Origin: a virus
Lineage: Duplodnaviria > Heunggongvirae > Uroviricota > Caudoviricetes
Virus record (IMG/VR): IMGVR_UViG_3300035208_003871
Direction: 5' to 3' (one strand)
DNA length: 64,000 bases
Positions within the stretch are counted from its first letter, which is position 1. Each line of letters begins with the position of its first letter. This document shows, piece by piece, positions 15,101 to 61,561 of the stretch. The notes under the pieces are model-generated. The model had not been told where the DNA came from and ran no database searches. It was given only the letters and a program-made list of their open reading frames with translations. The position numbers and the translations under genes are program-made.

Positions 15101-16148
15101 TAACTGGTGTACTTGGTATAATTGGTGCATTTTGTTTTGACGGTTTATTATATGCTTTGATTATGGCATTTAATTGAGATGATCCCATTGTTCCACTAAA
15201 ACCGTCATTTACTGTTGGTTTCTTTATTAATTTTTGTGTATATGGTTTTGATGGACGTGCCATTGGTAATACTGCTGCTAAACTCGCACCATTAATATTA
15301 CTAAGATTTCCGAATGGCTGTCTATTTGCTGCCCGGTTTTTATGAGTTACACTACCCATTCCACGCTGCATTGCACTTAAAATTGCTGTGGTTTCTGCCT
15401 CCTTAACAGCAGCCATTGTCGTAACAGTGTGCATTGCACGTTCAGATGATTCCCTTGCACGCTGTTTTCTGATCACGCCTGCTGGTATAACTGGAGTTGC
15501 TTTTGCCCTTGATTCTACTAACCCACTAATTTGTTTAAGATATTCGGTCTGCGACTTAGCTACCCCTTGTAAATGAGTCGCAGATTCAACAAATCCCGGT
15601 GGAAGATTTTTTCGCGCCTCGTTAATCATCTTCTTTTCGTAACGAGTTGTATTTATTAATTTACCAATTGTATGAGCAGCAGTAGATACAGTATTGAGTT
15701 TTTGTGCTGCTCTTTCATACATAGTATGCGACTTGTTTTGAGAAGTTGATGGATGAATATTTCCCATAGATGGATCGCTTAATACATCTTCATACTGCTT
15801 GTTTTTAGAAGTAAACTGTCGAATACGAGCATTATAACCTGCACGTTTAACGGCCTCTACACCATGTTTCTCAACTGCTTTTTTAACTTTTGCTTCCGCT
15901 AATGCATTTTCAGTATGCATTTTTGTGAATGCACGTCTTGTATTTTCGTAGTCAGTTTTACCTAGAGGAGATCCGGTTTTCGCTGTATTACCAATTGGTG
16001 AAGCGTGAATTAACCACTCTAACTCTTCGGGATTTGCATCTCCCAATTTTCTTATTAAATCACGTGTATTTGGAAACCCAGAGTCCTTAAGAAAATCTAC
16101 TATTTTCTTAGTATAATTTTTATATGGGTCAGTATAAGGGGCAGACAT
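6168..16148 (-). CDS. Tail tape-measure protein, 3326 aa, with two embedded HExxH metallopeptidase-like motifs.
   Basis: A single 9981-nt ORF downstream of the chaperone pair. It has a long hydrophobic, Gly/Ala-rich central segment typical of tape-measure proteins (approx. nt 9160-9640) and a Pro/Thr-rich linker (approx. nt 8750-8950). Two HExxH motifs are present: VEHEMVHQ at approx. nt 14715-14745 and FLHEMFHARVE at approx. nt 13458-13493. A motif F-[AM]-[KRQ]-G-G recurs five times along the protein. Confidence 0.85.
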   Translation of the reverse strand: MSAPYTDPYKNYTKKIVDFLKDSGFPNTRDLIRKLGDANPEELEWLIHASPIGNTAKTGSPLGKTDYENTRRAFTKMHTENALAEAKVKKAVEKHGVEAVKRAGYNARIRQFTSKNKQYEDVLSDPSMGNIHPSTSQNKSHTMYERAAQKLNTVSTAAHTIGKLINTTRYEKKMINEARKNLPPGFVESATHLQGVAKSQTEYLKQISGLVESRAKATPVIPAGVIRKQRARESSERAMHTVTTMAAVKEAETTAILSAMQRGMGSVTHKNRAANRQPFGNLSNINGASLAAVLPMARPSKPYTQKLIKKPTVNDGFSGTMGSSQLNAIIKAYNKPSKQNAPIIPSTPVKSFKSSPSIFSRAKSFVKTHGFDIATAVGGTAGLLGIGSMVGSIPMFARGGSINNQVAIAEAKKNLFAKVYANPGLGIHYAAPVNRIRSYATSPDPNVDRSHYDPTTNMINLVGNVDSRTVEHEMVHQSIAPGMIDEFSEKAGGVQNLRNIFNKTLPQYAKDTQNELFAKGYDPDTVAYHGLNEMLAQSISTPGIEDINKSKEWAESFIEREGDWQYKGSHEQRVKKLLKLRGQLKENFGFARGGVPGMGAQVRAFYNRDVRHMGHMVRDDMFRRQSVDPFQQLANPGQSAFSSTVDQGQSMSSIPGTDSFDLTGLSGWFDRLYHPDRYGGFALGGELETAIGLNNNKSYIYPHNPHKSFQDLSAEVNGPKSEAYLRYMLQSRKFAKGGRLDTSPLFRNNSMFYRKQNTEYNNYRKKYSHILSRNELTSRGDFSKLRNKLLKQVKIFNKPLFGIGNSPSFSNPFASSGATSYKSESRNLSNGVTALAGVLSNSNRIKFNYDFTPIGVRHQNEKTSSYNPNEDYVNITPLQNNRYREAFLHEMFHARVERNLLGDHKDFEFMRDRIPYYYKTMKDELTPYGKSTYKQFSPTQRSYYTTTYKNNHLVSKDDQEVYAQRRGIAETLAQSFESGLLGGSTPGERSKLGSKFSNYMSPHFGESSERSSILKASNLRNNIHRIFFAKGGIPGYAKGTPYGEIPNDLIRVSDEELGLTKSQVNKMGGIGILEPIRQMANSGKSILPLLGGVGSSGAYEFETTGSPTSDELPVRTSMGDTNPSNDIAYIMSYKMRKALEGSGKIGARRSIGGSIPGFMQGGIPGYARGTSRYDFGLSGLRKHRQTGLGSSSRYGRFPVRPDLVAALNSPVMRRSFEKPLPASVIEDPTRSMGFYEPTRYMRDEMGMDVREAYRMERALRNASRGKKNPFGSVSIDKLRNIDTLESPKISDFLRKDITEGSLQDPYSLMRKFQTAQGVKNFRESGLSRYNMGNKPTTIPSSDITHDISTMGTAIKRVTSSFVNLDKESAKIIRRSQRGDSIGMINPSMVLPGERRSWGGPDIGNYPSESLLGAKESTVKIPHSGMSAVPYLGGYNEPEGNSPFIKFNQLMENIKRQQRELLKLQPKFAADLSNMYKFIPDDRRTQLTTREFPNYGLPTEGLTHGVTLPEPEVMIQQRQRIQRSKRSPFTQAAINAVQAQPWGGAVENMGMLMPEDRPLAPFPPGKKGTHPSRLLNWQQSITDIQQSKRAFANISSNLYKGVLGKYGKDTQFEGQDKFSKLMEPVSGFLETPQGKIIKDMMDVPQRFVTEDFGTFNERRGQNVSPQILQKFKYIQGALRSGLEQPIKGTKTYREQISGEYERRVTDAEDEARIEISNIHRARREKQDTHKKNYLAGAKQSSHNERMRSLYGSDWRFELDPSMKTGSTTYSYANRPLYEMGAERTREGYVGGNKIIAGIKNIAPLRAMRRVVRGSDMSGAYEKFMTKFLNEQMDEIVSTTGQTTMDVSYGQLHPGATSSTVSPEEQINTVRENIARRQGGIKTAMESFLQTELGDVNASKYLKLDFADIIDYETEDGLKAARSNITVGFAGMREEIKKQYGKTDEEITGLQDKFEETFNVDIGRHGAGAKQATFTRGTEQVKGGGLQATTPMKISKLSKDFSWKAASISMSSMGVYFSLMGVFMQLQGALSGVMASLSDLNGMFKNVAYVQAFGGGLSKVNEIMGQAGTSQKDMVTAWKNAQGVQATFALGMTSLATAMFKDREFTDALSSSIRGLFKDLTNSDTLKTFKELLKAGAAALPAMVEGLKLFVGVLTFFKDKGWLEPLVKWAAYLMVATMLIQPLTSGLSLFLAVAGTAAELTAVFGGVTAGLAAMGVAALWLVGIGIALAAAWEVAARAIEFFTNGQTKILKPSDIIGGAYGALTGVKGYVGGGVIPKPAYDMVPGSPDDTVAALQSGETVIPRGGLKGYYTGTGQTLPSFMGITNNEIKRSNDNLQFTKTLRTLDEGNVTTRKEYDIFARADDGDGIGVYVRNWVTGFGNGGKEGEGGFPFDIGIIDRLLNALSFTPTPISGGPITTPTGLPVAATPSPFSVVPGNFPMVPEEETPISATSTASPLAANPLASTPIAVPNPNSVISIIKTVIANMAQSISGAWGNFVIKVGDATEFVHKGILDSFNIIYTTAGKIKEGAGNLAIALTSGGLVEAIKNTGTTLVKSAGSAIISANSNIGRSIGISGLGRGATIQDIYYHHAGYRELQDIKDYGPTGRSNTDYATRWREGKYTYAPGPSPIDVTRSAPITKSFNEFEKEFGKALSSFAQKNRQLILSDPDNYVENEAEGLLLEQRLKQKSLGLNVDAHGILKGDPLKSLDYFLTQGIDKSRKFHTAPLTDLSPGSGYLGAAGGAYKTGPFTLMSKPGQSLVDKTGKLDIGAVLVNKEQELAIQTLRDQYKDINFVTHDQVEDYLKGSLDLTQTHTPSKLSVNKPRFGGNLKQIWTPREVWGSDVPYDYGSTARKAITSGGNPYEVALDIAKVRGQNAAVGYGGRGFQWGGQKLAPVIEKGLGWLSGKTGLKIGVEAAEAAGKSAAGRKFLLSGLSKTSAILGTGFTKANMLAGNPAVFAGAHFLESRQASKEFRSGRPLNDMMSDNGKYNTFTGLLTGGFSTAGYAKGMKRWGETFGKSEEEMRDLMNQNKDLFEAGPSIGAMLRTGSKTTDKLLGTDFSQTLEDVGDTFEKGNQSLRDSIVSTNLKVGLGPLGEANVSEGVGDLVMGLNNAAANLANFDIEGIFGAGTSLIGLGEAGMELAGNTANEIGKNPIAAADLYMTAGMPGVPIPGMSFLGPYLASILMPKTTNYLANQTYGEGEYDGMGQMQTLVDSQQAMADNVKTMTDALTTNQEATIESLNNTNWAYAGKFNEAEYTPSFMKEPQSVSALNEAISNEVNTQISQKESTPQQMEIVISVSGSDKNEIATEVIRRLQSESIIEGIIRKTYTR

Positions 16149-19514: not shown

Positions 19515-19636
19515 TTCTCTTATTGCTATAGTTATTCCCCCTTTACATTTTTATTATTCAAGAAAGTGCAGATTCATTCTCCGTTAATGGAAACATTTAT
19601 ATCTACCTTTATATAAATCAAAATATGGAAGTGAAC

Positions 19637-24535: not shown

Positions 24536-26287
24536 TTACTCTTTGTTAAGTACTCGCTTTGATTTAGAAGTTGCAGAATCAGTAGGCTGTTGTTCCCTTG
24601 ACTTAGGCGTACTTGGATAATTTACTTTTCCATCAGATCTTAATTTCTGACCACCAAAATTTGCCTTTGCCTTTTCTAACTGAATACTCGCGTCTGTTTG
24701 AACCTGTGCCTGATTATCCATTGATAATTCATCAAACGATTTAATAATCGTTATATTACCAGCAGTAACAATACCTTCTTCAGTAATTTGCTGTTCTGTA
24801 AGAGGCTGTAAATTCAATTCCTCACGAATCTCCGTAGCAGTGCATACTCCAAGATCCTTCTTTAATTGCGCGATCTTCGCTTTCTCAAGACGTGATTCAG
24901 CAATCTCGAACGAAATCTTAATATCCAGATGATCGACAGCAAAAGTTGAATCTATTAAAAGTAACCTCTCACGCATGTTTTCCAATATCACACGAGAAAT
25001 TCTACGAGCAATCTGTTCAATACGAAGTGAAGCACCAGATGCAACAATTAACTCAGATGCATAAGATCCATCAGATAATCCTCGAATAACAGATTTAGGC
25101 ATTCCAAGAGCATCCCAAATCGTATTATCTATCTGATCCAAGAACTTATCATCATCCATAAACGCATTACCAGCGTGTTCAATGTTACGAACCTCGATAT
25201 TAGACGATGTAATATACTTCTGATCCGGCGCATCAGTCTTTAATCCCGCTGCATAATTATACATAAACGATTGAATTGCTTTTTCCGCAGCCACCTTCTT
25301 TTGTGCCGGAGTTCCGGGAAACTTATCAAATGAAAATGCTTCAGCGTTAATCACGTGGTGCTCACGCGGAACATTTGCCCAACCCCAAAGTGTCCGAATA
25401 ATATAAACCTGTCTTTTCATCCATATACCAATTACCGCTCTGTGCAGTGGTGATATAGCATAAATACCAAAGGTTTGTCGTCCTTTTGTATCAATAATAT
25501 TGAGTGGAACATCACTCATTTTAATGTGAATAAACTGATTTTTTTCCAAAACACGTTCAGTTTCCAATCGTTCATCTATAACCAGATAATTTTCTTCAGC
25601 GATAATCGTATTTGGATTCGCATTCATTAAAATACGGTCTTTATCATCTACAATAGTAATACGATTATTCGGTAAAATTGTCAAACTTAGATTTTGATGC
25701 TTTTCCAAGTAAATTTCACCATGAAGGTACAGAACGGCTGCCCATGTCTCAATAATTGACGGAATATCAATTCTGCGAGCGATTTCATTAGCAGTATCCT
25801 TCATCGCATCCCGTTTCTCTGATGTAGAAGTTGTGATTTCCCTATCAATAGAAGATTCACCAAGTTCGCCAACCTCAGTTAATTCATTTGCCTCTTCGAG
25901 CGAATTCTCATCACCCTCGGTAACATACCCAATCTTAAGATTTGATGGTATATTATCGAAATTAGAATCATCTATGAGCATGAAACAATCATATGATGAT
26001 CTCACCATTTCTGCAACTTTATTTACTACCGCAGCAACTTCAGGTTCCCATACAAATAACTGTTCATAAATGTCACGCTCATTTAATTCATCGAAATTTG
26101 TAAGTTCTATAAGAAAATTAGCAAGCGTTGATGTTATTGCCGTAGCTCCAGCGGGTGTTCCGTGAGGAGTTACACTATCAAAACCAAGATCCTGAGATTT
26201 ACCACGATAATATGTACCGGGCATACCCATAGAGAAATACTCTGTAATATGCTCCAATTCACTTTTTGAAAAATCCTGTTTACCCAT
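24536..26287 (-). CDS. Portal protein (583 aa).
   Basis: The size and the position immediately after the large terminase gene support the call, as does the acidic C-terminal region. Confidence 0.75.
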   Translation of the reverse strand: MGKQDFSKSELEHITEYFSMGMPGTYYRGKSQDLGFDSVTPHGTPAGATAITSTLANFLIELTNFDELNERDIYEQLFVWEPEVAAVVNKVAEMVRSSYDCFMLIDDSNFDNIPSNLKIGYVTEGDENSLEEANELTEVGELGESSIDREITTSTSEKRDAMKDTANEIARRIDIPSIIETWAAVLYLHGEIYLEKHQNLSLTILPNNRITIVDDKDRILMNANPNTIIAEENYLVIDERLETERVLEKNQFIHIKMSDVPLNIIDTKGRQTFGIYAISPLHRAVIGIWMKRQVYIIRTLWGWANVPREHHVINAEAFSFDKFPGTPAQKKVAAEKAIQSFMYNYAAGLKTDAPDQKYITSSNIEVRNIEHAGNAFMDDDKFLDQIDNTIWDALGMPKSVIRGLSDGSYASELIVASGASLRIEQIARRISRVILENMRERLLLIDSTFAVDHLDIKISFEIAESRLEKAKIAQLKKDLGVCTATEIREELNLQPLTEQQITEEGIVTAGNITIIKSFDELSMDNQAQVQTDASIQLEKAKANFGGQKLRSDGKVNYPSTPKSREQQPTDSATSKSKRVLNKE

Positions 26288-26546: not shown

Positions 26547-28220
26547 CTATGCATAAAAATCAATATGAGTATCACTTCCACCAAAAGCAGTCTTCCCGCC
26601 TCTATCACAAATAATTGCTATACCAGCCGGAGTCATCAACTCAAAATCTTCTGCATCTACAGCCTCCAAATACCAAATGCAGTTCGCTACGGTGTCCGAA
26701 ACGTCTTTGGAGCCTCTACGCTTTGGATGTTCAACTTTGGGCTTTCCTCCGGGCGTCTGCTTCACAAATAACTGCTCACACTCAATTTTAAGATCTTCAT
26801 TATAGACAACTTCTAAATCTATTGGATGCATTTTTTCTTGCAATTCACGCCACCGATCATAATCTTCTTTACCAACCTGATGCATAATCGGATCTAATCC
26901 AATCTCATACTGAATCGCTTCTAAAATTTCAGGATACATGTAAATATCATGTATAAATGCAACTACATTCAATGATTTAACAGCCTGTATAATAAAGTTC
27001 TTAATATCGGAAGGTAAGATATACGCATCCTTATCTCCCATTTTTTGGAATTTATAGACTCCATCTACAATAATACGATCTCCTGCACGATATGCACACG
27101 AAACACCAAAACTATCATTTTTATACGCAGGATCAATCGAAAGTACACGTGGGAATCTATTAATATCGGGCGGTAAATTATCAAAATCTAATTCCAATAC
27201 ATTTACTATTTCCTCATTAAGAGTAATACCTTCAGGAAACTGCAATCCACTTGAAATCTCAGGTTGATTAGCAAAATCTCTTAAAAATCGCGCTCTGTCT
27301 CTACCACACGATTTCCTTAAATAATCCTCAGTAACAAGTGGATTCATCTCCCAAGTCTTGTACATGTATGCACGTGCGATTCCATCCCGTTCTTCGCGTT
27401 CGAAATCACAAAATACATCCATCATGATTCCGGTTGCTGATTTCAACGAAGATATAGCAACTATTTTACCATCTAATCCAAAAGTTTCAGTAGAATTACA
27501 AAGCTTGTTATAAACCATCATCGCATCGATATCAGTCTCAGAATCTGTAAAATAATCAAATTCATCAAAAATAACAATCTTATTAGTGTAACCTGCAGCA
27601 GTAGAAGCCTTTGATGCAAGAACCTGACAAATAACATTCTTAGATGGATACTCAATACGCTGACTTCCAAACACTAATCCGGGAAACCATTTCTCAAACC
27701 ATGGATTTCCCTGAATCATCGATTTCATATTAGCAAACACACCATCACCAGCCTGTGTTCTGCTCGTCGCCAAGCAAGTGAGAGCAATAGTAGAACCTTT
27801 CCCAGATTTACCAACCATCAATCCGTAGTGACGCGCCGGATTTTCCCACGAAATAACCTCAAATAATTCATATGCAAGTATACAAGAAATCAAACTCGTC
27901 TTAGAACTACGCTGCCCCGCAATAAGAGCCAATTTCTTGCGCATTGGTGCATCCAGAACATATTTGTGCTCATAAAATCCTCTCAAAATCTCCTTCTGTA
28001 CAGGCCACATTCCACGAGGATTACCAAATTCGTCTGGTCCGGGAAAACCTAAAATTTCTTCAATAAACCAAATAGGATCGCTTCTTGCACGAATTACGTC
28101 CTCCATGAATTGCATTTCTTCAATAGGATCAATGTAAGAAATCGATGCATCTTCAATAGATTCAAAAAAGTGACGTTCTTCTGCTATACCAGCATCACGT
28201 TTGGGTCTACCTGCTGCCAT
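26547..28220 (-). CDS. Terminase large subunit (557 aa).
   Basis: An N-terminal Walker-A-like motif (LIAGQRSSKTS) and a C-terminal RNase-H-like nuclease region (LSIDPAYKNDSFGVSCAY). It overlaps the upstream small gene by 14 nt. Confidence 0.85.
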   Translation of the reverse strand: MAAGRPKRDAGIAEERHFFESIEDASISYIDPIEEMQFMEDVIRARSDPIWFIEEILGFPGPDEFGNPRGMWPVQKEILRGFYEHKYVLDAPMRKKLALIAGQRSSKTSLISCILAYELFEVISWENPARHYGLMVGKSGKGSTIALTCLATSRTQAGDGVFANMKSMIQGNPWFEKWFPGLVFGSQRIEYPSKNVICQVLASKASTAAGYTNKIVIFDEFDYFTDSETDIDAMMVYNKLCNSTETFGLDGKIVAISSLKSATGIMMDVFCDFEREERDGIARAYMYKTWEMNPLVTEDYLRKSCGRDRARFLRDFANQPEISSGLQFPEGITLNEEIVNVLELDFDNLPPDINRFPRVLSIDPAYKNDSFGVSCAYRAGDRIIVDGVYKFQKMGDKDAYILPSDIKNFIIQAVKSLNVVAFIHDIYMYPEILEAIQYEIGLDPIMHQVGKEDYDRWRELQEKMHPIDLEVVYNEDLKIECEQLFVKQTPGGKPKVEHPKRRGSKDVSDTVANCIWYLEAVDAEDFELMTPAGIAIICDRGGKTAFGGSDTHIDFYA

Positions 28221-28824: not shown

Positions 28825-29067
28825 ATGAACGGTGAATTTAAAAATGGTCAATGGATTGAACCATTAATAACCACAGAAAAAACAAATACAGAAACAGCAA
28901 ATAACTGTGATATTATAGATGTAATTCAAGTATTACGATGTACAATATCCGGAATCGTTGAAAACATAGATAAAATAGAGTATAAATTAGATCTCATCGA
29001 AAAGCGAATCGATGAGATTCAAAAACAAAAACCAAGTTTAATACATAGATTGTTTAAAAGATCCTGA
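28825..29067 (+). CDS. Hypothetical 80-aa protein.
   Basis: An ORF in a 300-bp gap between minus-strand genes. No clear RBS. Confidence 0.25.
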   Translation: MNGEFKNGQWIEPLITTEKTNTETANNCDIIDVIQVLRCTISGIVENIDKIEYKLDLIEKRIDEIQKQKPSLIHRLFKRS

Positions 29068-33021: not shown

Positions 33022-33124
33022 CTATACATTAAATGGAGAAGTATTTATATGTTTTTAAGACGAAATTATAATAAGTAAATGTGTGCCGGTTTACTATGTT
33101 TATATAGTGTCAAATGGGGGTATC

Positions 33125-40879: not shown

Positions 40880-41086
40880 TTACTCGGTGGCAATTTTTAC
40901 ATCTTCGGGCTTTGCAGTTTTGCGCTTGGCATGAGTTGTAAGGAGTTTAATCTGTTTTGACCACCCGGTTCCAATTGCAGAGAGTTTCTTGTCGAACTCG
41001 ATAGCTGCTTCACGTGACACACGCTCGATACCATTGGCTTTCATCAATCTGACAATAGCCGCTAAAGGAAATGTCGTTTCTGACAT
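40880..41086 (-). CDS. Archaeal-type histone (histone-fold, HMf family), 68 aa.
   Basis: FPLAAIVRLMKANGIERVSREAAIEF...HAKRKTAKPEDVKIA matches HMfB-type histones residue by residue: PIAPIGRIIK-AGAERVS, then the RKT-x-K-x-ED signature. Confidence 0.8.
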   Translation of the reverse strand: MSETTFPLAAIVRLMKANGIERVSREAAIEFDKKLSAIGTGWSKQIKLLTTHAKRKTAKPEDVKIATE

Positions 41087-41830: not shown

Positions 41831-42608
41831 TCTTTCTTTGTTGTTGTTAAGAGATTTTGGCAGGTGACGCGACTTCGGCCTAAACCAATGCTGTTTTGTT
41901 GAGTTTTTTATATTTTGTTTGATTATTAGTGTTTTTTCTGTTTAATTCATAATTATTTTGTAATTTATTATTTGTTGTTTTATTTTTATCTTAATTTGTT
42001 TAGTTTTGGGTATGAGATGACCCTCTTATGTATTTTAATTATAATTATTTTGGGTATGAGATTTTTATTTGGTTTTGTGGAAGTTGTTTTGTGTTTGGTG
42101 GTTTTGTTGGGGTTAGATCTCATAACTAAAGTTCATAATTATTTGTGTATGAGTTTGAGTTTGGTTATGAGAAGAGTGCCTTGTTTTTTATTGTTGTTAT
42201 TTTCGGTATGGATATGAAGAGGGTGCTTTATAGGGGCTTTTATAAAACGGTTCGCGGGTTGAACCGAATCGTGCTGTGACGATTTATACTATTATGTTGG
42301 TTTGCATACTATATAACTTCGCGGTTTACAGTATATAAAGGAAGAGTGATTAGTCCTTATTGGACATGTAGACAAACGTGGCAAATGCAATTAATAGGAA
42401 TGGAACGATTTGTTTTTCAGGGTATATTTTGTATGAGGTGTCAAATATACTGAACACGAGATCTCCAAGTATCCAACCAGCTGATAGACTGAGTGGTAAA
42501 GAGATTAGTGGCGTAGGATGTTGCATGATAATATTTTGGTGTGTTGTTATTTAAATATAATTGACATATAGATTTATTTGATTGTAAGTTGATATTTATG
42601 AAGCGGGT

Positions 42609-42872
42609 TTGTTAGGTTTATATATGGTAAAACTTGTGGATTACTTGGACGATGTAGGGTGGGATGGTTTGATGGGGAGGTGGGTTCAAAGTGTTAAGCT
42701 TTATTTGTTTCCACAGGATTGTTGTATGAACTGCGTGTATATGGGATTTAAGAGGGGGCACGCGGGAAACGGTGTAATGTTAATGTATTATTGTTCATGT
42801 TTTAAGACGGTTTTGGTATTGCATAATGTTGGTAGTTGTTGTGGCAGTTATAGGAGGAGTAATTCTTGGTAA
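42609..42872 (+). CDS. Member 1 of a tandem family of cytosine-poor small Trp/Cys/Gly proteins.
   Basis: The motif DCCMNCVY. A second ATG lies at 42624, just after CTAGGTTTATATATGG. Confidence 0.35.
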   Translation: MLGLYMVKLVDYLDDVGWDGLMGRWVQSVKLYLFPQDCCMNCVYMGFKRGHAGNGVMLMYYCSCFKTVLVLHNVGSCCGSYRRSNSW

Positions 42873-43084
42873 ACGATTTGGATCGTGATATGCGGAGATT
42901 TTTGTGGGATATTCGAAAGTTTTTGATTACTAGTGAAGTTTGTTTATGTTGCGAGAAATTGATGGTTAGGAGGAGGGATGGCGCCGTTGTATGCGATTTG
43001 GACGATGATGAGATGCAATTGAAATTTTTGAATAATTATAGATGTGATTTTTGGGTGGTGAGGCATGGATGGGACACTGGATAG
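42866..43084 (+). CDS. Tandem family member 2.
   Basis: CLCCEKLMVRRRDG. It overlaps its neighbours. Confidence 0.3.
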   Translation: MVNDLDRDMRRFLWDIRKFLITSEVCLCCEKLMVRRRDGAVVCDLDDDEMQLKFLNNYRCDFWVVRHGWDTG

Positions 43085-43283
43085 TTTGATGTGTGAATGG
43101 ATTATTTGCAATCGGGATTATTTGGTGTGTACATATGGGTTTAGGCAGATGTGTTGGAACTGTGTTTATAGTGGGAAATCTGTGAATTTGGGGCAGTATG
43201 TTTGTTTTATTAGACCGATGGATAAATCGAGGAGTCCGTATTTTACTTGTGTTAAGTGGATTAAGATTAAGATACCGGGTTGA
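43065..43283 (+). CDS. Tandem family member 3.
   Basis: RQMCWNCVYSGKS. Confidence 0.35.
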   Translation: MDGTLDSLMCEWIICNRDYLVCTYGFRQMCWNCVYSGKSVNLGQYVCFIRPMDKSRSPYFTCVKWIKIKIPG

Positions 43284-43320
43284 ATTGTAAACAGGAGATT
43301 ACTAATGGTGTTTAGATGTT

Positions 43321-43686
43321 ATGACTTTGTTAGATTTGTATCCTGATGGATCGTATTCGGTGTTCGAGGATGTTGATGGGGATACGTTTAGTTTGAGGAT
43401 GAGGGGGTTTGTAATTGGAGTTAAGGAGGATTTGTTAAATTATAGCTGGGAGATGTACTCGGGGAGGAAGTATAGGATCACGGATGTGGATTGTCGGAAA
43501 TGTTGTTATTGTATGTATGAGTATGGTCGTGCGTTTCCGGAGATACAGGTAGATGGACATTGGATGCCCACGGTGTTGTTTTGTCGGTATAGTGGGGATG
43601 TATTGAGTTTTGATTTTATGAGGATCAGACAGAAGGTGAATAGACCGTGTAGGAATTATAAATTGGATGAGGATGCGGGGTGGTAA
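43321..43686 (+). CDS. Tandem family member 4.
   Basis: CRKCCYCMYEYGRAF. Confidence 0.3.
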   Translation: MTLLDLYPDGSYSVFEDVDGDTFSLRMRGFVIGVKEDLLNYSWEMYSGRKYRITDVDCRKCCYCMYEYGRAFPEIQVDGHWMPTVLFCRYSGDVLSFDFMRIRQKVNRPCRNYKLDEDAGW

Positions 43687-43883
43687 TTTTGAATGAGATA
43701 TCTGATTATTTTATGGATGCTGGTGGGTATTGTAATTGTTGTTGGATTTGTGTTCATTTGTACAGGGGAAAGATGGGTCATAAGGGACCGTTTTGTGCAG
43801 GAAAGAATAGACATATATTTAAACCGCTGGCCTTTTGTTTTGAGTTTAGATTGGTGAGTGCAATGGAGCTAAAGGGAAGATGA
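43680..43883 (+). CDS. Tandem family member 5.
   Basis: CNCCWICVHLYRGK. Confidence 0.3.
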   Translation: MVILNEISDYFMDAGGYCNCCWICVHLYRGKMGHKGPFCAGKNRHIFKPLAFCFEFRLVSAMELKGR

Positions 43884-44140
43884 ACAATGAGTTAACATTT
43901 ATGATGGTGGATTTTGTAAAGGAATGTGGGTTTCATTTGCTGAATATTTCGAGAAAATTTGGTGAAATGGGAACTTGCTTTCATTGCGATTATTGTAGTG
44001 TTGTACATTATAAGGTGGTTGATGGAGAGTGGGAAACTGATATTATATGTTGGAAGAATAGTTATTTTGGAGAAAGGGACTGTATGAGTTGGGGAATGGC
44101 AACTGCTCATGTGATTTGTAGTGGATTTGTGCCGCGTTGA
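43880..44140 (+). CDS. Tandem family member 6.
   Basis: CFHCDYCSVVHY. Confidence 0.3.
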   Translation: MNNELTFMMVDFVKECGFHLLNISRKFGEMGTCFHCDYCSVVHYKVVDGEWETDIICWKNSYFGERDCMSWGMATAHVICSGFVPR

Positions 44141-44152
44141 CTAGGTTTATAT

Positions 44153-44383
44153 ATGGTAAATCGGGAGTTTGATGAGCAGATGTGGGTTTGGTGGAGTAAT
44201 GTCGATCATTTGATTAGGAGGCATACTGGCGTTGGGAGGGCATGTTGGAACTGTTATAATAGTAAGCGTTTACCTGATGAATTTTATGGTGAGTTTTTTT
44301 ATTTGTTTTATTGTAGTAGGGACAATCGGGTAATAACGCATGTGATAAAGCAGGTTTGTGATTGGTGGGAATTCCGTGGATGA
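44153..44383 (+). CDS. Tandem family member 7.
   Basis: GRACWNCYNSKR. The start follows CTAGGTTTATATATGG. Confidence 0.35.
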   Translation: MVNREFDEQMWVWWSNVDHLIRRHTGVGRACWNCYNSKRLPDEFYGEFFYLFYCSRDNRVITHVIKQVCDWWEFRG

Positions 44384-44678
44384 TAATTGGATTGTTACCG
44401 AATATTATAGGAGTATGGTATTAGATGATTCTGTGGATTCGTCTGTGGATTTGTTTAGTGAACTAATGAGATCTTGGGTGAATAATATGATTCCGTGGTT
44501 TGGTGCGAATGTCGGATTGCGGATGATGTGTTGGAATTGTAGGTTTATTGGTAAACGGACTGGTGGAGGATTTTTGTGCATGAACAAATCAACAGAACAA
44601 TTTAATATGGAACTTTGTGATGATTGGAAGTTCAATTCATATGCATGGAGTTTAGATTGGTGGGCATTTCGAGAATGA
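44358..44678 (+). CDS. Tandem family member 8.
   Basis: RMMCWNCRFIGKRTGG. Confidence 0.35.
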   Translation: MIGGNSVDDNWIVTEYYRSMVLDDSVDSSVDLFSELMRSWVNNMIPWFGANVGLRMMCWNCRFIGKRTGGGFLCMNKSTEQFNMELCDDWKFNSYAWSLDWWAFRE

Positions 44679-44926
44679 AACCAACTGGTTTATCAACTGG
44701 TATGAGCGATTTTGATTTATTAGTAAAAAATTTTGTAAGGGATGTGTGCAGGAATACCGGGGTGTGTGCTTTTGTCAGGTGCAATTGCTTGACTTGTACG
44801 TTTTCGGCTAGGTTGATCACAATTGATAATTTACTTTTGGGAGTGCTTTATTGTCAGAGTTCAAGAAAGGTAGTTAGAAATGATTTGGTTTGCGGCAATT
44901 GGGATAGCAGGTTAAGAGGTTACTAG
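44624..44926 (+). CDS. Tandem family member 9.
   Basis: CAFVRCNCLTCTF. Confidence 0.3.
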   Translation: MEVQFICMEFRLVGISRMKPTGLSTGMSDFDLLVKNFVRDVCRNTGVCAFVRCNCLTCTFSARLITIDNLLLGVLYCQSSRKVVRNDLVCGNWDSRLRGY

Positions 44927-45253
44927 GTTTATATAGTGTAAATACCGGAAGTTATATACGTTCAGACGAAGTATTATAGGTATGGAACATTTAACGATTA
45001 TGGGTGTAATTAAAAGGAAGTGTTTATTATAAACTTTCAGGTGTGGGCAGGCATTGGACTGTTACTTGTGGGATTGGACTTGATAGTCGAGTGTCAATAT
45101 GCATGGTGTGAGAAATGGCGGGTTCCAGTTGGATCGGTCTTTGTGTTTACTGCGTTACTTATTTTCTGGGCTAATTGGTGAATTATTCGGGTTGTAGGGT
45201 GGAATGAGCGTTAGCGAATGGCCCTACTTGGGCAAACTGGTAAGTAGGGCGTT

Positions 45254-45446
45254 CATTTCGGCTTAAAACTTTTTGATTATTGCGACAAAGTGACGTGATC
45301 ATTGTCGTGATAGATACTTCGGCTTAAACACTTCGTCTGGTTTATTTGGAAAAACTTAATTCTTGGATACTTCGTCTTAAAATATATTCTTCGGGGTATG
45401 GGGTATAACGAACCGTAGGTGAGTGGCCCCATTCGGCTTAAAATAT
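45254..45446. repeat. Four direct repeats of TTCGGCTTAAAA (one copy is TTCGTCTTAAAA), spaced 53-61 bp apart.
   Basis: The copies are at approx. 45258, 45319, 45372 and 45432. Confidence 0.7.
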
Positions 45447-45519
45447 TTGAAAAGTGTAATTAATTCGGATATAGACCCGCTAGCTTATATATACTACTGT
45501 TAACGATGCTTTTTTATTC

Positions 45520-46002
45520 TTTTTGGGTGGAAGGAAGCTTCCTTCATGGGTATATAAAGGTATCGGATTGGGTGTACGATATGGAAATGTTTATATAGTG
45601 CATGTGGAATGATGTTACCAGTGAGAGTATATAAAGGTTTCGATTTGATTTTCGGTTCAAGTATATAAGGTTAACTGTTAGCGCGCTGTACAATTTAGTA
45701 ATAATAAACCAGTTGGTAGTATGATGCGCGGTGTTACGATTTTTTAATTGGTATTACGATTCAATAGGGCTTTCAGCGCGTTCATTTCTCTTAACCCTTA
45801 ATATCATTCGATTAATCATAAGGGTACTGAGGCGTAGCTTCAACCTTGATACCTTTACATGAAGGTTATATGGGCTTCTTTTTGAAATTGGAGGCCAATT
45901 CACGGTGTGATGAGATGGAATGACACTGTTTGTCATGGGTATATAAAGATGCCGGTGGAAGGAAGCTTCGTATGTGGGTATATAAATGTGTCGATTTGAA
46001 CC
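45520..46002. promoter_or_regulatory. A cluster of five GGGTATATAAAGG TATA-like boxes, some preceded by the palindrome GAAGGAAGCTTCCTTC.
   Basis: The boxes are at approx. 45548, 45627, 45660, 45937 and 45976. Each is followed by G-T-x-T-C-G-A-T-T-T-G-A. A perfect 16-bp palindrome lies at 45525-45540. Confidence 0.55.
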
Positions 46003-46019
46003 GGTATGACGCGCGATTA

Positions 46020-46560
46020 ATATAGTAACACGATTATATAATTGGTGATTTATATTAATAATTTTATATTATGTGGATTATATAATCTGAATATTATAAA
46101 AAAACTTTTATAAAATTATTTTTATTGAGTTGTACTTATTTATATTTTCGTAGCAGTGATATCACTGATTTTTATGTGATGTGGAATATATTAATAGGAA
46201 TATATTCAGGTTTTTATATTTTTGTTAATATAATTTTAGGGATTATATAATGGAGCTGGTTATATATTCCACACTATTATAAAACTATTTTTATAAATCT
46301 GTTATTATAAATCTATTATTATAATTATCAAATTATAAATCCATTATTATATTTCTATTATTATATAATGCATAGATAAATATTAAGTTTTTTATATTGA
46401 TTTCTTTATATTATTTCTTTTATATTACGACTAATATATTATTACTTTAATATCACTTTTAGTATAATTTATAGAGTATATTTTATGGAATATAAAATTA
46501 CTTATATAATTACTCTGATTATATATTAACAGGTAAAATATAACTGTTTGTCATATAATG
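46020..46560. repeat. An extremely AT-rich stretch with short direct repeats (TTATTATAAATC x3-4), which could be a DNA-unwinding element.
   Basis: Composition and the repeats at 46295-46345. Confidence 0.5.
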
Positions 46561-46866
46561 GTTTATATAAAAGGTTCTGGATATATTTGTGGTTTTTGCG
46601 GACAGGTATCTGAGCATAGGGGTTTTTGCTCTCCTTCCTGTTATAGTGGATACAAACAGGAAATAAAGAAAAACGGTATTAAAAAGTGTATTTCCTGTAA
46701 AAAGCATTATTCAGGTTCTTTCCTTTTTTGTGGCGAAATATGCTTTCAGAATTACTTATACCGGTTAAAAACGGGTAAAATTGAAAATAAAGAAGTTTTA
46801 TCGATAATAGAGAAATACCCTATAATACCTCATGATAATCAGGCACCTGATGCGGATAAACCATAA
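46558..46866 (+). CDS. zf-FCS/TRASH-like zinc-finger protein (102 aa).
   Basis: CGFCGQVSEHRGFCSPSCYSGYK, then CISCKKHYSGSFLFCGEICFQNY. These are two copies of a C-x2-C...[FY]C-x2/3-C module. Confidence 0.5.
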   Translation: MVYIKGSGYICGFCGQVSEHRGFCSPSCYSGYKQEIKKNGIKKCISCKKHYSGSFLFCGEICFQNYLYRLKTGKIENKEVLSIIEKYPIIPHDNQAPDADKP

Positions 46867-47503
46867 TGCATCTATACGCACATATCAGAACGGTATTGAA
46901 GGAAAAAATCTATCCCTTATACTCTTATGATCTCAAAACCTCATGATACCGTTTGAATATGAGAATAGTAAAATGAAACAATTTAACAGTATATAAACCA
47001 ACAATATTTATATGTATTACACATTATAAAAGATAAGCGCTGACCGTATAACCATTAGAATTAAAAAATAACCTCATAAATTCATAATTTTTAAATCCTC
47101 TATTTTTCCCGTTTATTTCGGTCTTTCCTGAAGCTTTAACGGTCTTATTCTCTTATCCTTGTCACAAAGAATATATACTATCTTAGATAGATAATATACT
47201 GTATAGAACGTGAGAAGGGAAAGATTAGCGACTCAGCGCTGATATCCCTTTGATTCATCCGCTAAAAGTGCTGAGGGTTCTCATGGGTTAAATCCCTTTA
47301 ATTTTCATAATATCCGTTTTATCCCTCTTTTTTGTCATAATCTCTTCTTACCGGGATGGATTTTCAGAGTTAAAAGAACCAGTTAAATTTATTTCTTGTA
47401 AAAAATCTATGAAAAACAACTAAAAATTAATTAAAATCTCTTAAATCTCTTTATTTGAGTATAAACCCTTAAACGGGGTACATCAAATCAAAGGAGTAAA
47501 AAC

Positions 47504-52171: not shown

Positions 52172-52261
52172 AATTAAAACAATATTTTTTAATTCAATAC
52201 TTTTATTCGATTTTTAATATAAAAACATTAATATAAAAACATTAAAATAAAACTATTAAAA

Positions 52262-52392
52262 TATTGAATGTACAAATATAAACAGTAATGTATTAAAATG
52301 TACATCAATGTATAGAAATGTACATCAATGCATTAAAGTATTCACCAATGTACAAAAATGTACATTATTGTATATATTTATACATTCAATAT
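52262..52392. repeat. About eight direct or inverted copies of AATGTACA(T/A) in an AT-rich spacer.
   Basis: AATGTACAAATA...AATGTACATCAATGTATAGAAATGTACATCAATGCATT...CAATGTACAAAAATGTACATTATTGTATA...TACATTCAAT. Confidence 0.65.
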
Positions 52393-52872
52393 ATTAAAAC
52401 TTTTATAAAAATATTAATATAAATAGTTAATAAATATAAATTGCAATTATATAAAAAGAATATTATAAAATTATTAATATATAAAATGTAATATATTTTT
52501 AACATTATATAGAGATCTTTATAAAAATAAATATATAAAAACAATTTTATATTAATAAAAAGTTATTCAAAAGTACTTAACAAAAAATATGGTAAAAATT
52601 CTCAAAAAACTAAGGTTACAGGCAAATTTATTATATTTAAATATTTGGATATTACTAAGGTTCATGGAAATTTGTTAACCCTTTTTAGTTAACTTTTTAA
52701 GTGAGTAAATAATGAAAATTACCCTATTACCCGGCAAAAAAGTTACAAGTTTAAAGTTTTTAATTAACCTAAGGTTACATGAATTATTTCTCATAACTCA
52801 TACCCAAATAATTATAAAAATTTACATTTTAATAATTAATTATTTATGGTTATAGAAACATACTAATTATAC

Positions 52873-53526: not shown

Positions 53527-53715
53527 CTCATACCTCATACCTGAATAAATAAATAATTATAATTTTTTTTTTTTAATTTAATTAAAAAGGTATGAGATTG
53601 ACCTCCTCCTATGTTTTCATTTAATTTCTCAGGTTTGGGTATGAGCAATTTCATATAACTCATATCTCATCAAATGAACATCATATATCGCATAACTTTT
53701 TTCTAAATAACTCCA

Positions 53716-53739
53716 TACCTGAGATTCTCAGGTATGAGT
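53716..53739. repeat. A perfect 24-bp palindrome, CATACCTGAGATTCTCAGGTATG. It is part of a family of GGTATGAG/CTCATACC motifs.
   Basis: Read directly. Related copies lie at 53523-53540, 53589-53613 and 53638-53660. Confidence 0.7.
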
Positions 53740-54638
53740 AATGAATGATCCTTGTCAGTCTGCTATCCAAGGATATCAGCCTGAAGAAATGAGGCGCCGC
53801 ATTGAAATAACTCCAAATTAGCCTCTAAATCGGAAAAGAACGAAAACGGCATAAATCCTAAAGGATATAATGATGATAATAGCTCACTATGTATTTGTTC
53901 TTTATCACTATATATACTTATCGATTTTAAGAGAAGTGAGGCACCAAAACTTAAGTTATCGCAAATCAATAATTTTATGCTCTTCAATATGCGTATCATC
54001 AGTTTTCCACTCACTAAAAATCAACTAACATATAAATCTTATCCTCAAATCAATGTTTTAAGCCGAAATGTTTAAGACGGAATACAGCTAACAATAGTAT
54101 GTAACAGGTGAGTAAGGTAAGAGTCAATAAAGCTCTTATGATGAAAACTGTTATGATGAGTATCGGAATTAGGAGATTGATACCTTCCCGATATGATATA
54201 GGCAAATGCCAAATATGGTATGTTATCGTGAACCTCTTATCAGGTGTGATCGCTAATCCATCCCCTACAACGAGAGGAGCCATAACACAAATATCAAAAC
54301 GGTAGTATCCCACGACTAAGTAACAACTAAACCCGATGATCGGTGATCAATCGGTAGTATAGATTAACGACCAACAATTTTTATGAGGTATTATTAGTGA
54401 ATCCACAAACCAATTATAACAATGTGAAATATTAGACTTCAGAGCATCCCGGTAACACATATTTTCAGGTTCAATTCATCCTGATCTTATGTATTCAGGC
54501 GAAACCCTGATAAAAACTATTACTCCTTTCTTTTAGTACCAGTCGCGTAAAAATATGATACATCCATAAAGTGAGATGCTAACGGACTCACAAGAAGGGT
54601 TCAAATCCCTTATTGCGTTTAAATTGGAGTTAAATTTT

Positions 54639-54951: not shown

Positions 54952-55884
54952 ATGGCTTGGAAAACAAATGATAAAAACACTGACAAAACAGAAAAGAAAA
55001 GCGTTTACGAAATTATCACTGATCGCGTTATCCAATTAATAGAAAGTGGACAGCTAAACTGGAAGAAAACATGGGCTTTACAAGAACCTATGAATTATGT
55101 TTCAGGTAAAAAGTACAATGGAATCAACCATATACTATTATCATGCATGGGCTTCTCTTCTCCATATTGGCTAACATATAAACAAGCTACAGATATGGGC
55201 GGAAACATCAAAAAAGGTTCAAAAGGAGTCCCTGTAGTGTATTTCGCACGTAAAGAGTCAAAAGATAAAAAAGTTCTTAAAAACGGTACTGAAAAAGCTC
55301 AGTTTTATGTAATCCTTCGGTATTACACAGTATTTAATACTGAACAATGTGAGAACATCCCAGAAAAAAGTTATAACGCACCAATTATCAGAGACCATTC
55401 AGAAATTGAAACCTTAATTTCAGCACACAACCCTGAGTTGAGTAGAGGTAATCCAGCTTATTCACCCGGAATGGATATCATCTATATGCCCGATATCAAG
55501 GAATTCAGCTCACAGAACAACTATTATAAAACCTTCTTTCACGAAATGAGTCACTGGACAGGTCATAAAGACCGATTGAACAGGGATGAAGTCACTCGCA
55601 AATCTGGTCGTTTCGGAGATGAAGATTACTCCAAAGAAGAGCTTGTCGCTGAGTTAAGTGCAGCATTTATCAGCTCTATATATAATATCTCATCAGACGA
55701 CACAGAAGCAAACACAGCTGCTTACATCCAGTCGTGGATCAAAGTATTGAAGAATGATCCAAAGATGATTATAAGTGCCTCCAGTAGAGCACAAAAAGCA
55801 ACTGAGTTTCTTCTTAAACCAGTATCAAATAATATAGAAGTTTCAGAAGTTTCAGAAAAAACTGAAGATGGTGTATATGCATAA
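54952..55884 (+). CDS. ardC: ArdC-like antirestriction protein: an ssDNA-binding N-domain plus a zincin metalloprotease domain (310 aa).
   Basis: An N-terminal ArdC-N-like region (WKKTW...YNGINHILL...YWLTYKQATDMGGNIKKGSKGVPVVY) and a C-terminal HExxH motif (FFHEMSHWTGH), as in ArdC / DUF1738 proteins. Confidence 0.75.
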   Translation: MAWKTNDKNTDKTEKKSVYEIITDRVIQLIESGQLNWKKTWALQEPMNYVSGKKYNGINHILLSCMGFSSPYWLTYKQATDMGGNIKKGSKGVPVVYFARKESKDKKVLKNGTEKAQFYVILRYYTVFNTEQCENIPEKSYNAPIIRDHSEIETLISAHNPELSRGNPAYSPGMDIIYMPDIKEFSSQNNYYKTFFHEMSHWTGHKDRLNRDEVTRKSGRFGDEDYSKEELVAELSAAFISSIYNISSDDTEANTAAYIQSWIKVLKNDPKMIISASSRAQKATEFLLKPVSNNIEVSEVSEKTEDGVYA

Positions 55885-60169: not shown

Positions 60170-61561
60170 ATGGTAAATTTTCAATGTAAAATCGTTAAAG
60201 GAAATATCCCCGATCCCGTTATGGATCGTATTACCAAATTACGATCATATGGGTATGAAGCATGGATCGTGGGAGGTGCATCTCTCTATCATTATGCCGG
60301 TAACCACTTAAACATAGACAAATATAAAACCCCTCCTAAAGATTATGATCTCTTTACCAATTGTACATCAGAAGTATTATTTAAAATCTTTAACGATATT
60401 AAACCAATTGGAGGTCAGGAAAGGTTATCCAGAATATTCACAGTTGTAACTTCAGACGGCATTGAAATAAGCACTTATCGTCAGGGAGGTAAACGTGAAG
60501 AAGTTGGTTTCAAAATAACCGATCATTTAGTTACTTGCGATTATACCATTAACAGTATTGCCTATGATGGTGAAGTACTAATCATCCCCGAAACCATCAA
60601 CGATCACTTAAAAGATAATAAACTGGTATCTATGGGAAACCCTCAAGATCGCATTGATGAAGATAATAATCGTCTCATGAGAGGGTTTAGATTCACCGGC
60701 AAATACAACCTATATATCGAACCTAAATTATATAAAGTATTACAAAACACTGATTTGAGCAAAATACCAGTAGAAAACATCAGGGATGAATTCTTTAAAT
60801 TAATTAAATATCCACACGGATTAAATGCTTTCATTGCATCAGGAAAGTTTTTTGAATTATTCCCTGAAATGAAACAAATGATAAATTTATATGGACAGTC
60901 AGTCTATCATGAAGAAGATGTATGGGATCATTCATTAACCACATATATCCAGATGAGCAAACTAACAGACGATCCCATACTATTATTCACCGCGCTATTT
61001 CACGATTATGGCAAACTATACACCAAAGATTCAGAAGGTAGATTCATTAAACATGATGAAATAGGATCAGAAAAGTTACAGTCTATATTAATCAGACTAA
61101 AAATAAAAACCAAAGATCAAAAACGTATATTGTGGTTAGTGAAAAATCATATGTGGGTTCTGAATGGAGAAAGTAAAAAGAGAAAGAAATGGTTCAGGTT
61201 CTTTAATTCAATGGAAGATTCGGGTTCTACTTATTCAGACTTTATGTTCATCCGGTATACCGATCACATCAGCAAAAAGTTAAACGGATCTTACCTCCAT
61301 GAAAATGAATCAACGATGAACTTCTATGAATTCATAAAATCAAATGTAATCACTGAATGGGTAATCCTTTATACATCAGGGCAATATCCAAAAAGAACTA
61401 ATAATCTAAACATAAACGGTAATGACATAATCTCATTAGGAATTCCACCCGGTCCTAAAATCGGCTTAATCCTAAACAAACTCTATGAAATGGTTATCGC
61501 TGATGAATTACCCAACATCCATGACAAACTAATAGATCAAGTTAAAAAATGGATAAAATAA
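60170..61561 (+). CDS. cca: tRNA nucleotidyltransferase (CCA-adding enzyme, class II) with a C-terminal HD domain (463 aa).
   Basis: A pol-beta-like head (EAWIVGGASLYHYAG...DYDLFT), an RxxRxxRF motif (NRLMRGFRF) and an HD motif (HSLTTY...FTALFHDYGK). Confidence 0.7.
   Translation: MVNFQCKIVKGNIPDPVMDRITKLRSYGYEAWIVGGASLYHYAGNHLNIDKYKTPPKDYDLFTNCTSEVLFKIFNDIKPIGGQERLSRIFTVVTSDGIEISTYRQGGKREEVGFKITDHLVTCDYTINSIAYDGEVLIIPETINDHLKDNKLVSMGNPQDRIDEDNNRLMRGFRFTGKYNLYIEPKLYKVLQNTDLSKIPVENIRDEFFKLIKYPHGLNAFIASGKFFELFPEMKQMINLYGQSVYHEEDVWDHSLTTYIQMSKLTDDPILLFTALFHDYGKLYTKDSEGRFIKHDEIGSEKLQSILIRLKIKTKDQKRILWLVKNHMWVLNGESKKRKKWFRFFNSMEDSGSTYSDFMFIRYTDHISKKLNGSYLHENESTMNFYEFIKSNVITEWVILYTSGQYPKRTNNLNINGNDIISLGIPPGPKIGLILNKLYEMVIADELPNIHDKLIDQVKKWIK

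Follow-up and report, generated by a model that had tools for sequence, protein, structure and literature searches.

With moderate confidence, the gene-free segment at positions 45254-46560 of a 64,000-nucleotide (nt) stretch of DNA from the tailed virus IMGVR_UViG_3300035208_003871 (the whole stretch is referred to as the window) is interpreted as a non-coding transcription control region of a large tailed, likely archaeal virus, in which leftward promoters and operator-like sites would act as an antisense switch or barrier. This 1.3-kb region separates two co-directional plus-strand gene blocks, with small plus-strand genes on its left and a 102-amino-acid (aa) plus-strand gene (46558) on its right.

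A preliminary description of this DNA had counted five TATATAAA boxes in the region, each followed by TCGATTTGA, and had considered them as a battery of archaeal-type TATA promoters. Four copies of GTATATAAA (45550, 45627, 45939, 45978) and the variant GTATATAAGG at 45661 were found, but TCGATTTGA follows only two of the five boxes (45627 and 45978); the box at 45550 is followed by TCGGATTG, and the remaining two have no such extension. In the window, GTATATAAA occurs 8 times versus 2.05 expected. The kind of promoter proposed is supported, whereas its strand has to be reversed: TCGATTTGA is a B recognition element (BRE) read backwards, so the boxes would fire leftward, against the flanking genes, as minus-strand BRE plus TATA promoters. 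Two of these promoters, termed B and E below, differ from AAATCGAAACNTTTATATA (BRE plus TATA) by 0 and 1 mismatch, respectively, and the boxes of the region fit TTTAWATA, the pattern used to recognize the TATA box of an archaeal core promoter. Exact TTTATATA sites are located at 45558, 45635, 45947, and 45986 on the minus strand and at 45590 on the plus strand; these five sites, all within 750 nt, are among only 35 exact copies found when both strands (128 kb) are counted.

Public collections were scanned for TATATAAANGTNTCGATTT (reverse complement AAATCGAAAC(A/C)TTTATATA). In more than 140 viral and metagenome loci the two free positions of the motif were strongly biased (T/G and T/A), and one 196-kb viral contig contained at least five copies on a single strand, which together argue for a real and widespread motif. 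In the viral and metagenome loci, the start of an open reading frame (ORF) was located at a distance of 20-60 nt on the TATA side for 36 of 109, versus 12 of 127 on the other side. With one genome per GTDB species, Archaea accounted for 67 of 80 hits among the matches listed, mainly Woesearchaeota/Nanoarchaeota, Methanosarcinales, Methanobrevibacter, and Methanothermococcus, and ORF starts in the GTDB genomes concentrated 22-26 nt past the TATA, the geometry of leaderless mRNA. The published methanogen consensus comprises TTTATATA, a BRE of the form MRCCGAAAAG that sets the direction, and a TATA-to-initiator distance of 19-24 bp (PMC2602779); the motif of the region agrees with it. AAATCGAAAC(A/C)TTTATATA is thus identifiable as a euryarchaeal BRE plus TATA box, and both the identity and the direction of the predicted promoters are shown by these statistics. 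The ORF distances contradict two other interpretations of the boxes, plus-strand promoters and bacterial -10 elements, for which a Shine-Dalgarno sequence and ATG after TCGATTT in a few loci could be cited.

Matches to the consensus with at most two mismatches were found in the window at 45567-45995 and once more at 19587, and nowhere else; L010 and L007, which are further sequence of the virus, contained no match at this threshold. The match at 19587-19625 (plus strand, ATGGAAACATTTATATC, 2 mismatches) lies within the minus-strand structural gene block and appears to be another orphan or antisense promoter. In other DNA, the 196-kb IMGVR_UViG_3300028048_000047 (loci L020, L024, L029, and L035) carries at least five copies of the consensus promoter, each 67-98 nt ahead of an ORF. 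Two to three copies, among them a tandem pair in front of a gene, are present on two contigs from 'Bacilli bacterium' bins (L212, L222); these contigs probably represent DNA of archaeal viruses placed in the wrong bin.

The four leftward promoters form two tandem pairs, E plus D (39 nt apart) and B plus A. Promoter B (45605-45648; AAATCGAAACC-TTTATATA, TATA 45635-45628) has no mismatch to the pan-archaeal BRE/TATA consensus ATCGAAACNTTTATATA and is the best match in the 64-kb window, followed by promoter E (45956-45999; AAATCGACACA-TTTATATA, TATA 45986-45979) with a single mismatch. In both, a near-perfect BRE (AAATCGAAAC) lies directly upstream of TTTATATA. Promoter A (45528-45570, TATA TTTATATA at 45558-45551) has a weak, partial BRE, TCCGATACC, and three mismatches to ATCGAAACNTTTATATA; in L013, a diverged strain with the same region (JGI Ga0378408_0003408), the BRE reads TTCGATACC and the mismatches are two. 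In promoter D (45916-45958, TATA 45947-45940), with four mismatches, the BRE is too poor to qualify as one. All four have TTCCA(C/T) in common, with a C-A step at +22/+23 from the TATA, except in D, where it is found at +23/+24; from this shared A at +23/24, start sites are predicted at 45956 (E), 45916 (D), 45605 (B), and 45528 (A). The boxes belong to paralogous modules: A and E have a palindrome in common, D and box G (a minus-strand TTTATATA at 46571-46564) have ATGACAAACAG in common, and TTCCA is present in all.

The perfect 16-bp palindrome that had been described, GAAGGAAGCTTCCTTC, was located exactly at 45530-45545, where it occupies positions +6 to +21 after the TATA of promoter A; its degenerate copy (45958-45973, three mismatches) lies at the same offset in promoter E. 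A second palindrome, ATGACA-N5-TGTCAT (45920-45936), lies within promoter D, past the TATA and ahead of the predicted start, and its half-site CTGTTTGTCAT recurs at 46545-46555, just ahead of the 102-aa gene. Archaeal repressors that block polymerase recruitment bind downstream of the TATA, where the palindrome sits. A search of IMG/VR with the palindrome-containing 16-mer GGTGGAAGGAAGCTTC gave matches at chance level only.

The TATA-to-start intervals of A, B, D, and E are GC-rich, and those of A and D are clearly palindromic; an AT-rich initially melted region was not found in them. At 233 consensus promoters elsewhere the interval contains 75-80% A+T, and TTCCA occurs in only 2 of the 233. 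A somewhat speculative and rather unlikely extension is that the battery does not serve to produce useful RNA, and that an array of maximal-affinity BRE/TATA elements with hard-to-melt palindromic starts serves as a head-on roadblock or insulator that separates temporal gene blocks, or as a sink for the host factors TBP (TATA-binding protein) and TFB (transcription factor B) as the genome replicates. We know of no such basal-factor decoy or barrier element described for archaeal viruses.

Besides the leftward promoters, a predicted plus-strand promoter, P+1 (45581-45621; ATGGAAATG-TTTATATA, TATA 45590-45597, two mismatches, predicted start at about 45620), stands face-to-face with promoter B, so that their initiation regions overlap. 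It is retained in L013 as ATGGAAAGG-TTTAAATA, and a hairpin followed by T6 (45740-45745) lies downstream of it. The fifth box of the preliminary description, box C (45661-45670), is the TATA-like variant GTATATAAGG without a BRE; it has TATATAAGGTTAA in common with the promoter of a viral gene for a 3326-aa protein.

That the region is free of genes was confirmed: gene callers run on the source contig and on a relative called nothing there. No ORF of at least 20 aa on either strand showed coding-type conservation in L013; these ORFs contained a stop or frameshift in L013, differed mainly by amino-acid-changing substitutions, or lay in near-invariant DNA, and none of the ORFs downstream of the leftward promoters was conserved. 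Reading the boxes as decayed starts of the 102-aa gene (GYIK peptides) was rejected, as the small ORFs are not conserved as proteins. Rfam gave no match in the region even at E values up to 5, the tRNA search was negative, and the fold z-scores (-0.44, +1.29, +0.51, and -0.47) revealed no significantly stable RNA. A scan for sigma-70 promoters and intrinsic terminators stayed at background level.

Identities between the window and L013 were determined by segment. L005 is identical to the window and L285 nearly so. High identity was found for the R block of direct repeats at the left end of the region (98.5%), for the core of B plus box C (98.4%), for D plus E (98.5%), for promoter A with an adjoining T-tract (95.5%), and for an AT block at 46222-46557 (336 nt, 99.1%), compared with 91.3% for the upstream ORF and approximately 94.5% for the 102-aa gene. 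The A-B spacer (the TATA-to-start interval of B) was only 68.6% identical, 45761-45870 was 83.6% identical, and 46001-46221 was 74.7% identical with 88 additional gap columns. Conserved elements are thus separated by free-running spacers, which suggests that DNA sites, and not a product, are under selection; this reading would be consistent with the lack of an RNA family, tRNA, significant fold, or kept ORF.

This pattern bears on two other explanations. According to the first, the boxes are remnants of repeated duplication of a promoter/gene-start module, for example mobile regulatory cassettes in a hyperplastic region, with little present function. The modules are clearly paralogous, the gene content next to the region is mosaic, and module number varies: L013 has a fifth, perfect-consensus promoter inside the AT tract, box F, with GTGATATCAC palindromes on either side, which a 10-nt deletion has destroyed in the window. 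The promoter cores and the R block, however, are conserved above the flanking coding DNA while the spacers diverge, the signature of selection, and B, E, and F are still 0-1 mismatch away from the host consensus; we consider decay of this kind improbable. According to the second, the tandem pairs D/E and B/A produce abundant trans-acting small non-coding RNAs of approximately 200-300 nt, with hypervariable patches as strain-specific targeting or decoy segments. More than 70 kb contained no stronger consensus promoters than these, they are arranged in tandem as at stable-RNA genes, no ORF is conserved, and 20-nt hypervariable patches occur inside conserved flanks. One such patch (45844-45863) is wholly different in the window and L013, and the L285 assembly breaks there. 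Nonetheless, the negative Rfam result and the unremarkable fold z-scores speak against an RNA product, a predicted stem is disrupted by uncompensated substitutions in L013 (as judged by eye), and nothing complementary to the variable patch occurs elsewhere in the window. Trans-acting RNAs therefore appear unlikely, if a little less so than mere remnants.

The R block (45257-45443) consists of the four direct repeats of the preliminary description. All four copies of TTCGGCTTAAAA are real, exact at 45257 and 45432 and with one mismatch at 45318 and 45371, but their spacing is 61, 53, and 61 bp rather than a uniform 57 bp. On the minus strand the motif reads TTT(T)AAG(C/A)CGAAG(TAT). At up to one mismatch the window contains 7 hits versus 0.63 expected. 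The R motif also lies between TATA and start codon of genes on the minus strand at 29038 and 41171 (the latter an ORF for a small Cys-rich protein of 93 aa) and on the plus strand at 33083, 44982, and 61728, and a tandem copy is present at 54055-54085. Its 12-mer core TTTAAGMCGAAG was absent from 277 other fetched loci. In IMG/VR, the R motif and TTTATATACCCATGA occurred at chance level except for L353, a viral contig of the same landfill sample, in which the R 15-mer is again located between TATA and ATG. As R copies elsewhere sit between the TATA and the start of leaderless genes, R behaves as a virus-specific, promoter-associated protein-binding site that is operator-like rather than a classical iteron.

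Four direct repeats in non-coding DNA are also reminiscent of plasmid centromeres and of the R sites in lambda cosB, and the R block is highly conserved; a terminase recognition site (pac/cosB-like) or a partition site in place of a transcriptional element is nevertheless very improbable. The region is approximately 17 kb away from the terminase genes, the motif is also found inside several promoters across the genome, and no contig ends at the region save for the strain-variation break at 45843. Comparison of the repeats with C/D-box, hammerhead, or CRISPR-like elements gave a poor fit by eye. Their core of 12-16 nt and spacing of 53-61 nt differ from a CRISPR array or mini-array, which requires repeats of at least approximately 23 nt and uniform unique spacers.

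Between the R block and promoter A, an oligo-T tract (TTTTTTATTCTTTTT, 45510-45524, plus strand) directly adjoins the position at which the promoter A transcript is predicted to start; L013 and L285 have the same tract. Oligo(dT) stretches act in archaeal termination (bioRxiv 10.64898/2026.06.17.732947), and the tract is likely an archaeal-type terminator for plus-strand transcripts of the upstream block, a function that we infer.

The right part of the region had been described as approximately 540 bp with more than 85% A+T. An AT-rich tract with repeats is present, but 46001-46557 averages 82% A+T and ranges from 77 to 89% per 100 nt. Its variable part (46001-46221) contains a palindrome, CAGTGATATCACTG, at 46154-46167 and the decayed box F at approximately 46088. 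The conserved part (46222-46557) is built of 14-nt tandem repeats in three arrays (46275-46365, 46390-46453, and 46461-46495), one of them comprising 6.5 copies of TATTATAAATCTAT, and contains a plus-strand TATA (46242-46249) with TTCCAC 17 nt later. Since the AT block is more conserved than the flanking genes, it is argued to have a sequence-specific function and to be more than filler.

This architecture had been taken as typical of a replication origin, a proposal for which no positive support was obtained. According to it, the AT tract would unwind, R sites and/or the 14-nt arrays, which could be initiator-binding sites, would bind a viral initiator, and the promoters would activate or prime replication. 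Parallels are known from the primary origin of T7, the R-loop origins of T4, and lambda ori. In its favor are the 557 nt of 82% A+T beside repeats and promoters, the 99.1% identity of 336 nt of this tract, and the orientation of box G, L013 box F, and the plus-strand TATA at 46242, which all face the AT tract. The putative origin of the virus SSV1, moreover, lies in a comparable low-GC, repeat-rich region of convergent transcription (bioRxiv 10.64898/2026.06.17.732947). Of the cumulative skews, computed within the 64-kb window of the 154-kb genome, the A-T minimum (46,642) and a change of the GC-skew slope, which flattens here, coincide with the region and favor an origin. Against one, the cumulative G-C skew reaches its minimum precisely at the divergent gene switch (33,027). 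Moreover, G and T are enriched on the plus strand left of 46 kb, which we read as opposite in sign to the change expected at a bidirectional origin and as tracking the odd amino-acid composition of a family of Cys-rich paralogues encoded there.

Further evidence against an origin comes from the arrangement of the elements. The best promoters, B, E, A, and D, are directed away from the AT tract; the R sites lie approximately 560 bp off it at 53-61 bp from each other, unlike iterons, and recur in ordinary promoters. Neighboring ORFs gave no initiator-like hit (Rep, Orc1/Cdc6, primase-helicase), and the nearest AAA+ proteins, a RuvB homologue and an AAA_5 protein, are encoded more than 20 kb away. 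No origin recognition box (ORB)-like cluster was found on comparison with the ORB consensus. A second gene-free AT-rich tract (52172-52872, GC approximately 18%) also has 14-nt arrays, along with AATGTACATC repeats at periods of 10, 20, and 40 nt, and has exact 18-21-mers, partly inverted, in common with 46048-46120. An origin, perhaps one activated by transcription, is thus possible but doubtful, although it is a better candidate than the other alternatives.

In the preferred reading as a transcription control region, plus-strand transcription of the upstream block would stop at the oligo-T tract (45510-45524). TBP, TFB, and RNA polymerase of the host would load on the leftward promoters and give rise to short non-coding or antisense transcripts, which would enter the R block with its four T4-T5 runs on that strand. 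Head-on transcription together with bound initiation complexes would constitute the switch or barrier, by which the two gene blocks could be regulated separately. The palindromes would be operators for dimeric repressors that block polymerase recruitment, and the four clustered R sites would be bound by a virus-specific regulator that may also act at several leaderless viral promoters. The conserved AT repeat block could represent the promoter and leader region of the downstream block and/or an easily melted element.

Several points weigh against this reading. Because the BREs of A and D are weak, their direction rests on TATA asymmetry and on their similarity to E and B. With GC-rich intervals in place of the 75-80% A+T seen elsewhere, the promoters may melt poorly or need a factor. 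A simple barrier role does not explain the high conservation of the R and AT blocks, and the conservation pattern derives from one diverged strain, L013. We infer the start sites, terminators, and barrier function, and likewise the transcripts, regulators, and biological role. As to the host, the virus encodes proteins of bacterial type (RuvB, a class II CCA-adding enzyme, and ArdC), and in NCBI both its histone and the terminase of a related virus are found under the label Dehalococcoidales bacterium, which we take to be mis-binning; for these reasons an archaeal host is strongly indicated, short of proof.

An archaeon is the most likely host because viral genes share the leaderless TATA geometry and a histone-fold protein is encoded. 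In the window, the TATA end precedes a start codon by 22-25 nt in seven hits at six genes (5627, 6168, 16971, 21243, and 23299 on the minus strand; 35495 on the plus strand), against a background of approximately 0.36 hits per offset; in the comparison with archaeal promoters, the ATG of the viral leaderless genes lies 23-25 nt past the TATA. The histone-fold protein (68 aa; 40880-41086, minus strand) matches PF00808 with an E value of 3.5e-08. As a guide to the host it was of no use, since the search returned the identical protein alone, 'histone [Dehalococcoidales bacterium]' on a 155,300-bp contig in NCBI, which is probably a mis-binned viral contig. The bacterial-type genes are located at L010:10803-11762 and, in the window, at 60170-61561 and 54952-55884 (RuvB, CCA-adding enzyme with HD domain, ArdC/MPTase).

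The virus is tailed, with genes for the large terminase (26547-28220) and the portal protein (24536-26287) on the minus strand of the window. Genes at 1-33.0 kb are on the minus strand, those at 33.1-64 kb nearly all on the plus strand. By exact protein match, the window belongs to a 154,370-bp ENA contig (ERZ27247350 k141_204523). It crosses the ends of this contig, whose assembly is hence either circular or circularly permuted. A nucleotide search of GenBank phages retrieved no similar DNA, and a 420-aa protein tried as a route to relatives had a closest match of only 33% identity. The JGI sample 3300037067, in which a close relative is present, is a landfill metagenome. Terminase homologues (P0047, P0048, P0052, P0053, and others) with 35-87% identity, many of which contain inteins, are encoded on contigs of up to 143 kb (60-143 kb for P0047, P0052-P0054, and P0064) and define an uncharacterized lineage of large viruses related to the virus studied here. 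The ORF for the 3326-aa protein (6168-16148, minus strand) has a TATA exactly 24 nt ahead of its ATG, which predicts a leaderless mRNA; searches of Pfam, PHROG, and PDB gave no match for it. Its assignment as a virion RNA polymerase was rejected, as the DxDGD motif is absent and no family or PDB match was obtained.

Upstream of the region, 42624-44926 (plus strand) encodes the tandem family of approximately ten small Cys-rich paralogues, with CWNC/CxxC motifs and conserved AGGTTTATATATGGTAAA starts; the plus strand of this stretch contains 8% C and has a GC skew of +0.5 to +0.6. Compared with L013, the window contains 62 additional nt (45182-45243) directly after the ORF of a small membrane protein (45020-45181), and L013 has a 133-aa gene inserted upstream instead. 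Downstream, the 102-aa gene (46558-46866, plus strand) encodes a Cys-rich protein (CxxC...CxxxC, twice), and its first codons overlap box G. No family hit was obtained for this protein, which is a candidate regulator solely on account of its position. Directly after the gene follows a non-coding gap of 637 nt (46867-47503) with TTAACAGTATATAAACC, of which the motif family TTTACAGTATATAAA recurs at 42325 and 63929. A further gap of 1 kb without convincing genes (53527-54575) contains GGTATGAG repeats, also present at 41987-42062, a minus-strand BRE/TATA-like box, AAATCGATAAGTATATATA (approximately 53909-53927), and approximately 450 nt of ORF-free DNA with normal GC content.

To our knowledge, almost nothing is known about the timing of gene expression or the replication starts of large tailed archaeal viruses. 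The region provides a concrete and cheap test case, with four predicted starts, three candidate operator types (the 16-bp palindrome, ATGACA-N5-TGTCAT, and the R motif), and an AT block under sequence constraint in a virus lineage without a cultured relative. As the region also shows, an archaeal host can be assigned to an uncultivated virus from promoter grammar alone, i.e., from leaderless spacing and the BRE/TATA consensus, despite a bacterial-looking bin label and several bacterial-looking genes.

Among known systems, the methanogen core promoter (PMC2602779) has the same TTTATATA TATA, the same purine-rich ..CGAAA.. BRE upstream that sets the direction, and the same pyrimidine-purine start 23-24 nt past the TATA, a geometry also seen in the viral leaderless genes and in archaeal genomes. 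The promoters of the region differ from it in that their TATA-to-start interval is GC-rich and palindromic rather than AT-rich, that no gene or known RNA is found downstream, and that four of them are stacked in two tandem pairs against all neighboring genes.

In the T7 primary origin, the tandem promoters phi1.1A/B, used by the phage's own RNA polymerase, are followed by an AT-rich region. The region studied here has in common with this origin and with the R-loop origins of T4 that tandem strong promoters lie beside an AT-rich tract in non-coding DNA. The T7 promoters, however, fire into the AT element, whereas A, B, D, and E are directed away from theirs, with just the weak or strain-specific G, F, and 46242 TATA facing the tract. 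With iteron origins (lambda ori, plasmids) and ORB/Orc1 origins it shares four direct repeats and an AT-rich tract; but iterons are spaced by approximately 20-22 bp, whereas the R sites are 53-61 bp apart and do not adjoin the AT tract, the motif doubles as a TATA-to-start element, and neither an initiator gene nor an ORB-like sequence was found. The tandem early promoters A1-A3 of T7 and the T4-type promoter early stem-loop (PeSL) cassettes likewise cluster the genome's best host-consensus promoters in paralogous modules whose copy number varies among strains in a mosaic region. They drive co-oriented early genes, whereas the promoters described here face the 3' ends of their neighbors, with no ORF downstream.

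The closest described parallel is the Tind-Tlys region of SSV1 together with the antisense RNAs of this virus. In that region, convergent transcription, oligo(dT) terminators, low GC content, palindromes, and repeats occur together, an origin has been hypothesized but is unproven, and antisense non-coding transcripts are common in SSV1 (bioRxiv 10.64898/2026.06.17.732947). SSV1 is a spindle-shaped crenarchaeal virus of 15 kb, in contrast to the tailed virus of 154 kb studied here, and its transcripts were mapped experimentally, whereas those of the present region are predicted; a battery of four consensus promoters, as found here, is not present in SSV1.

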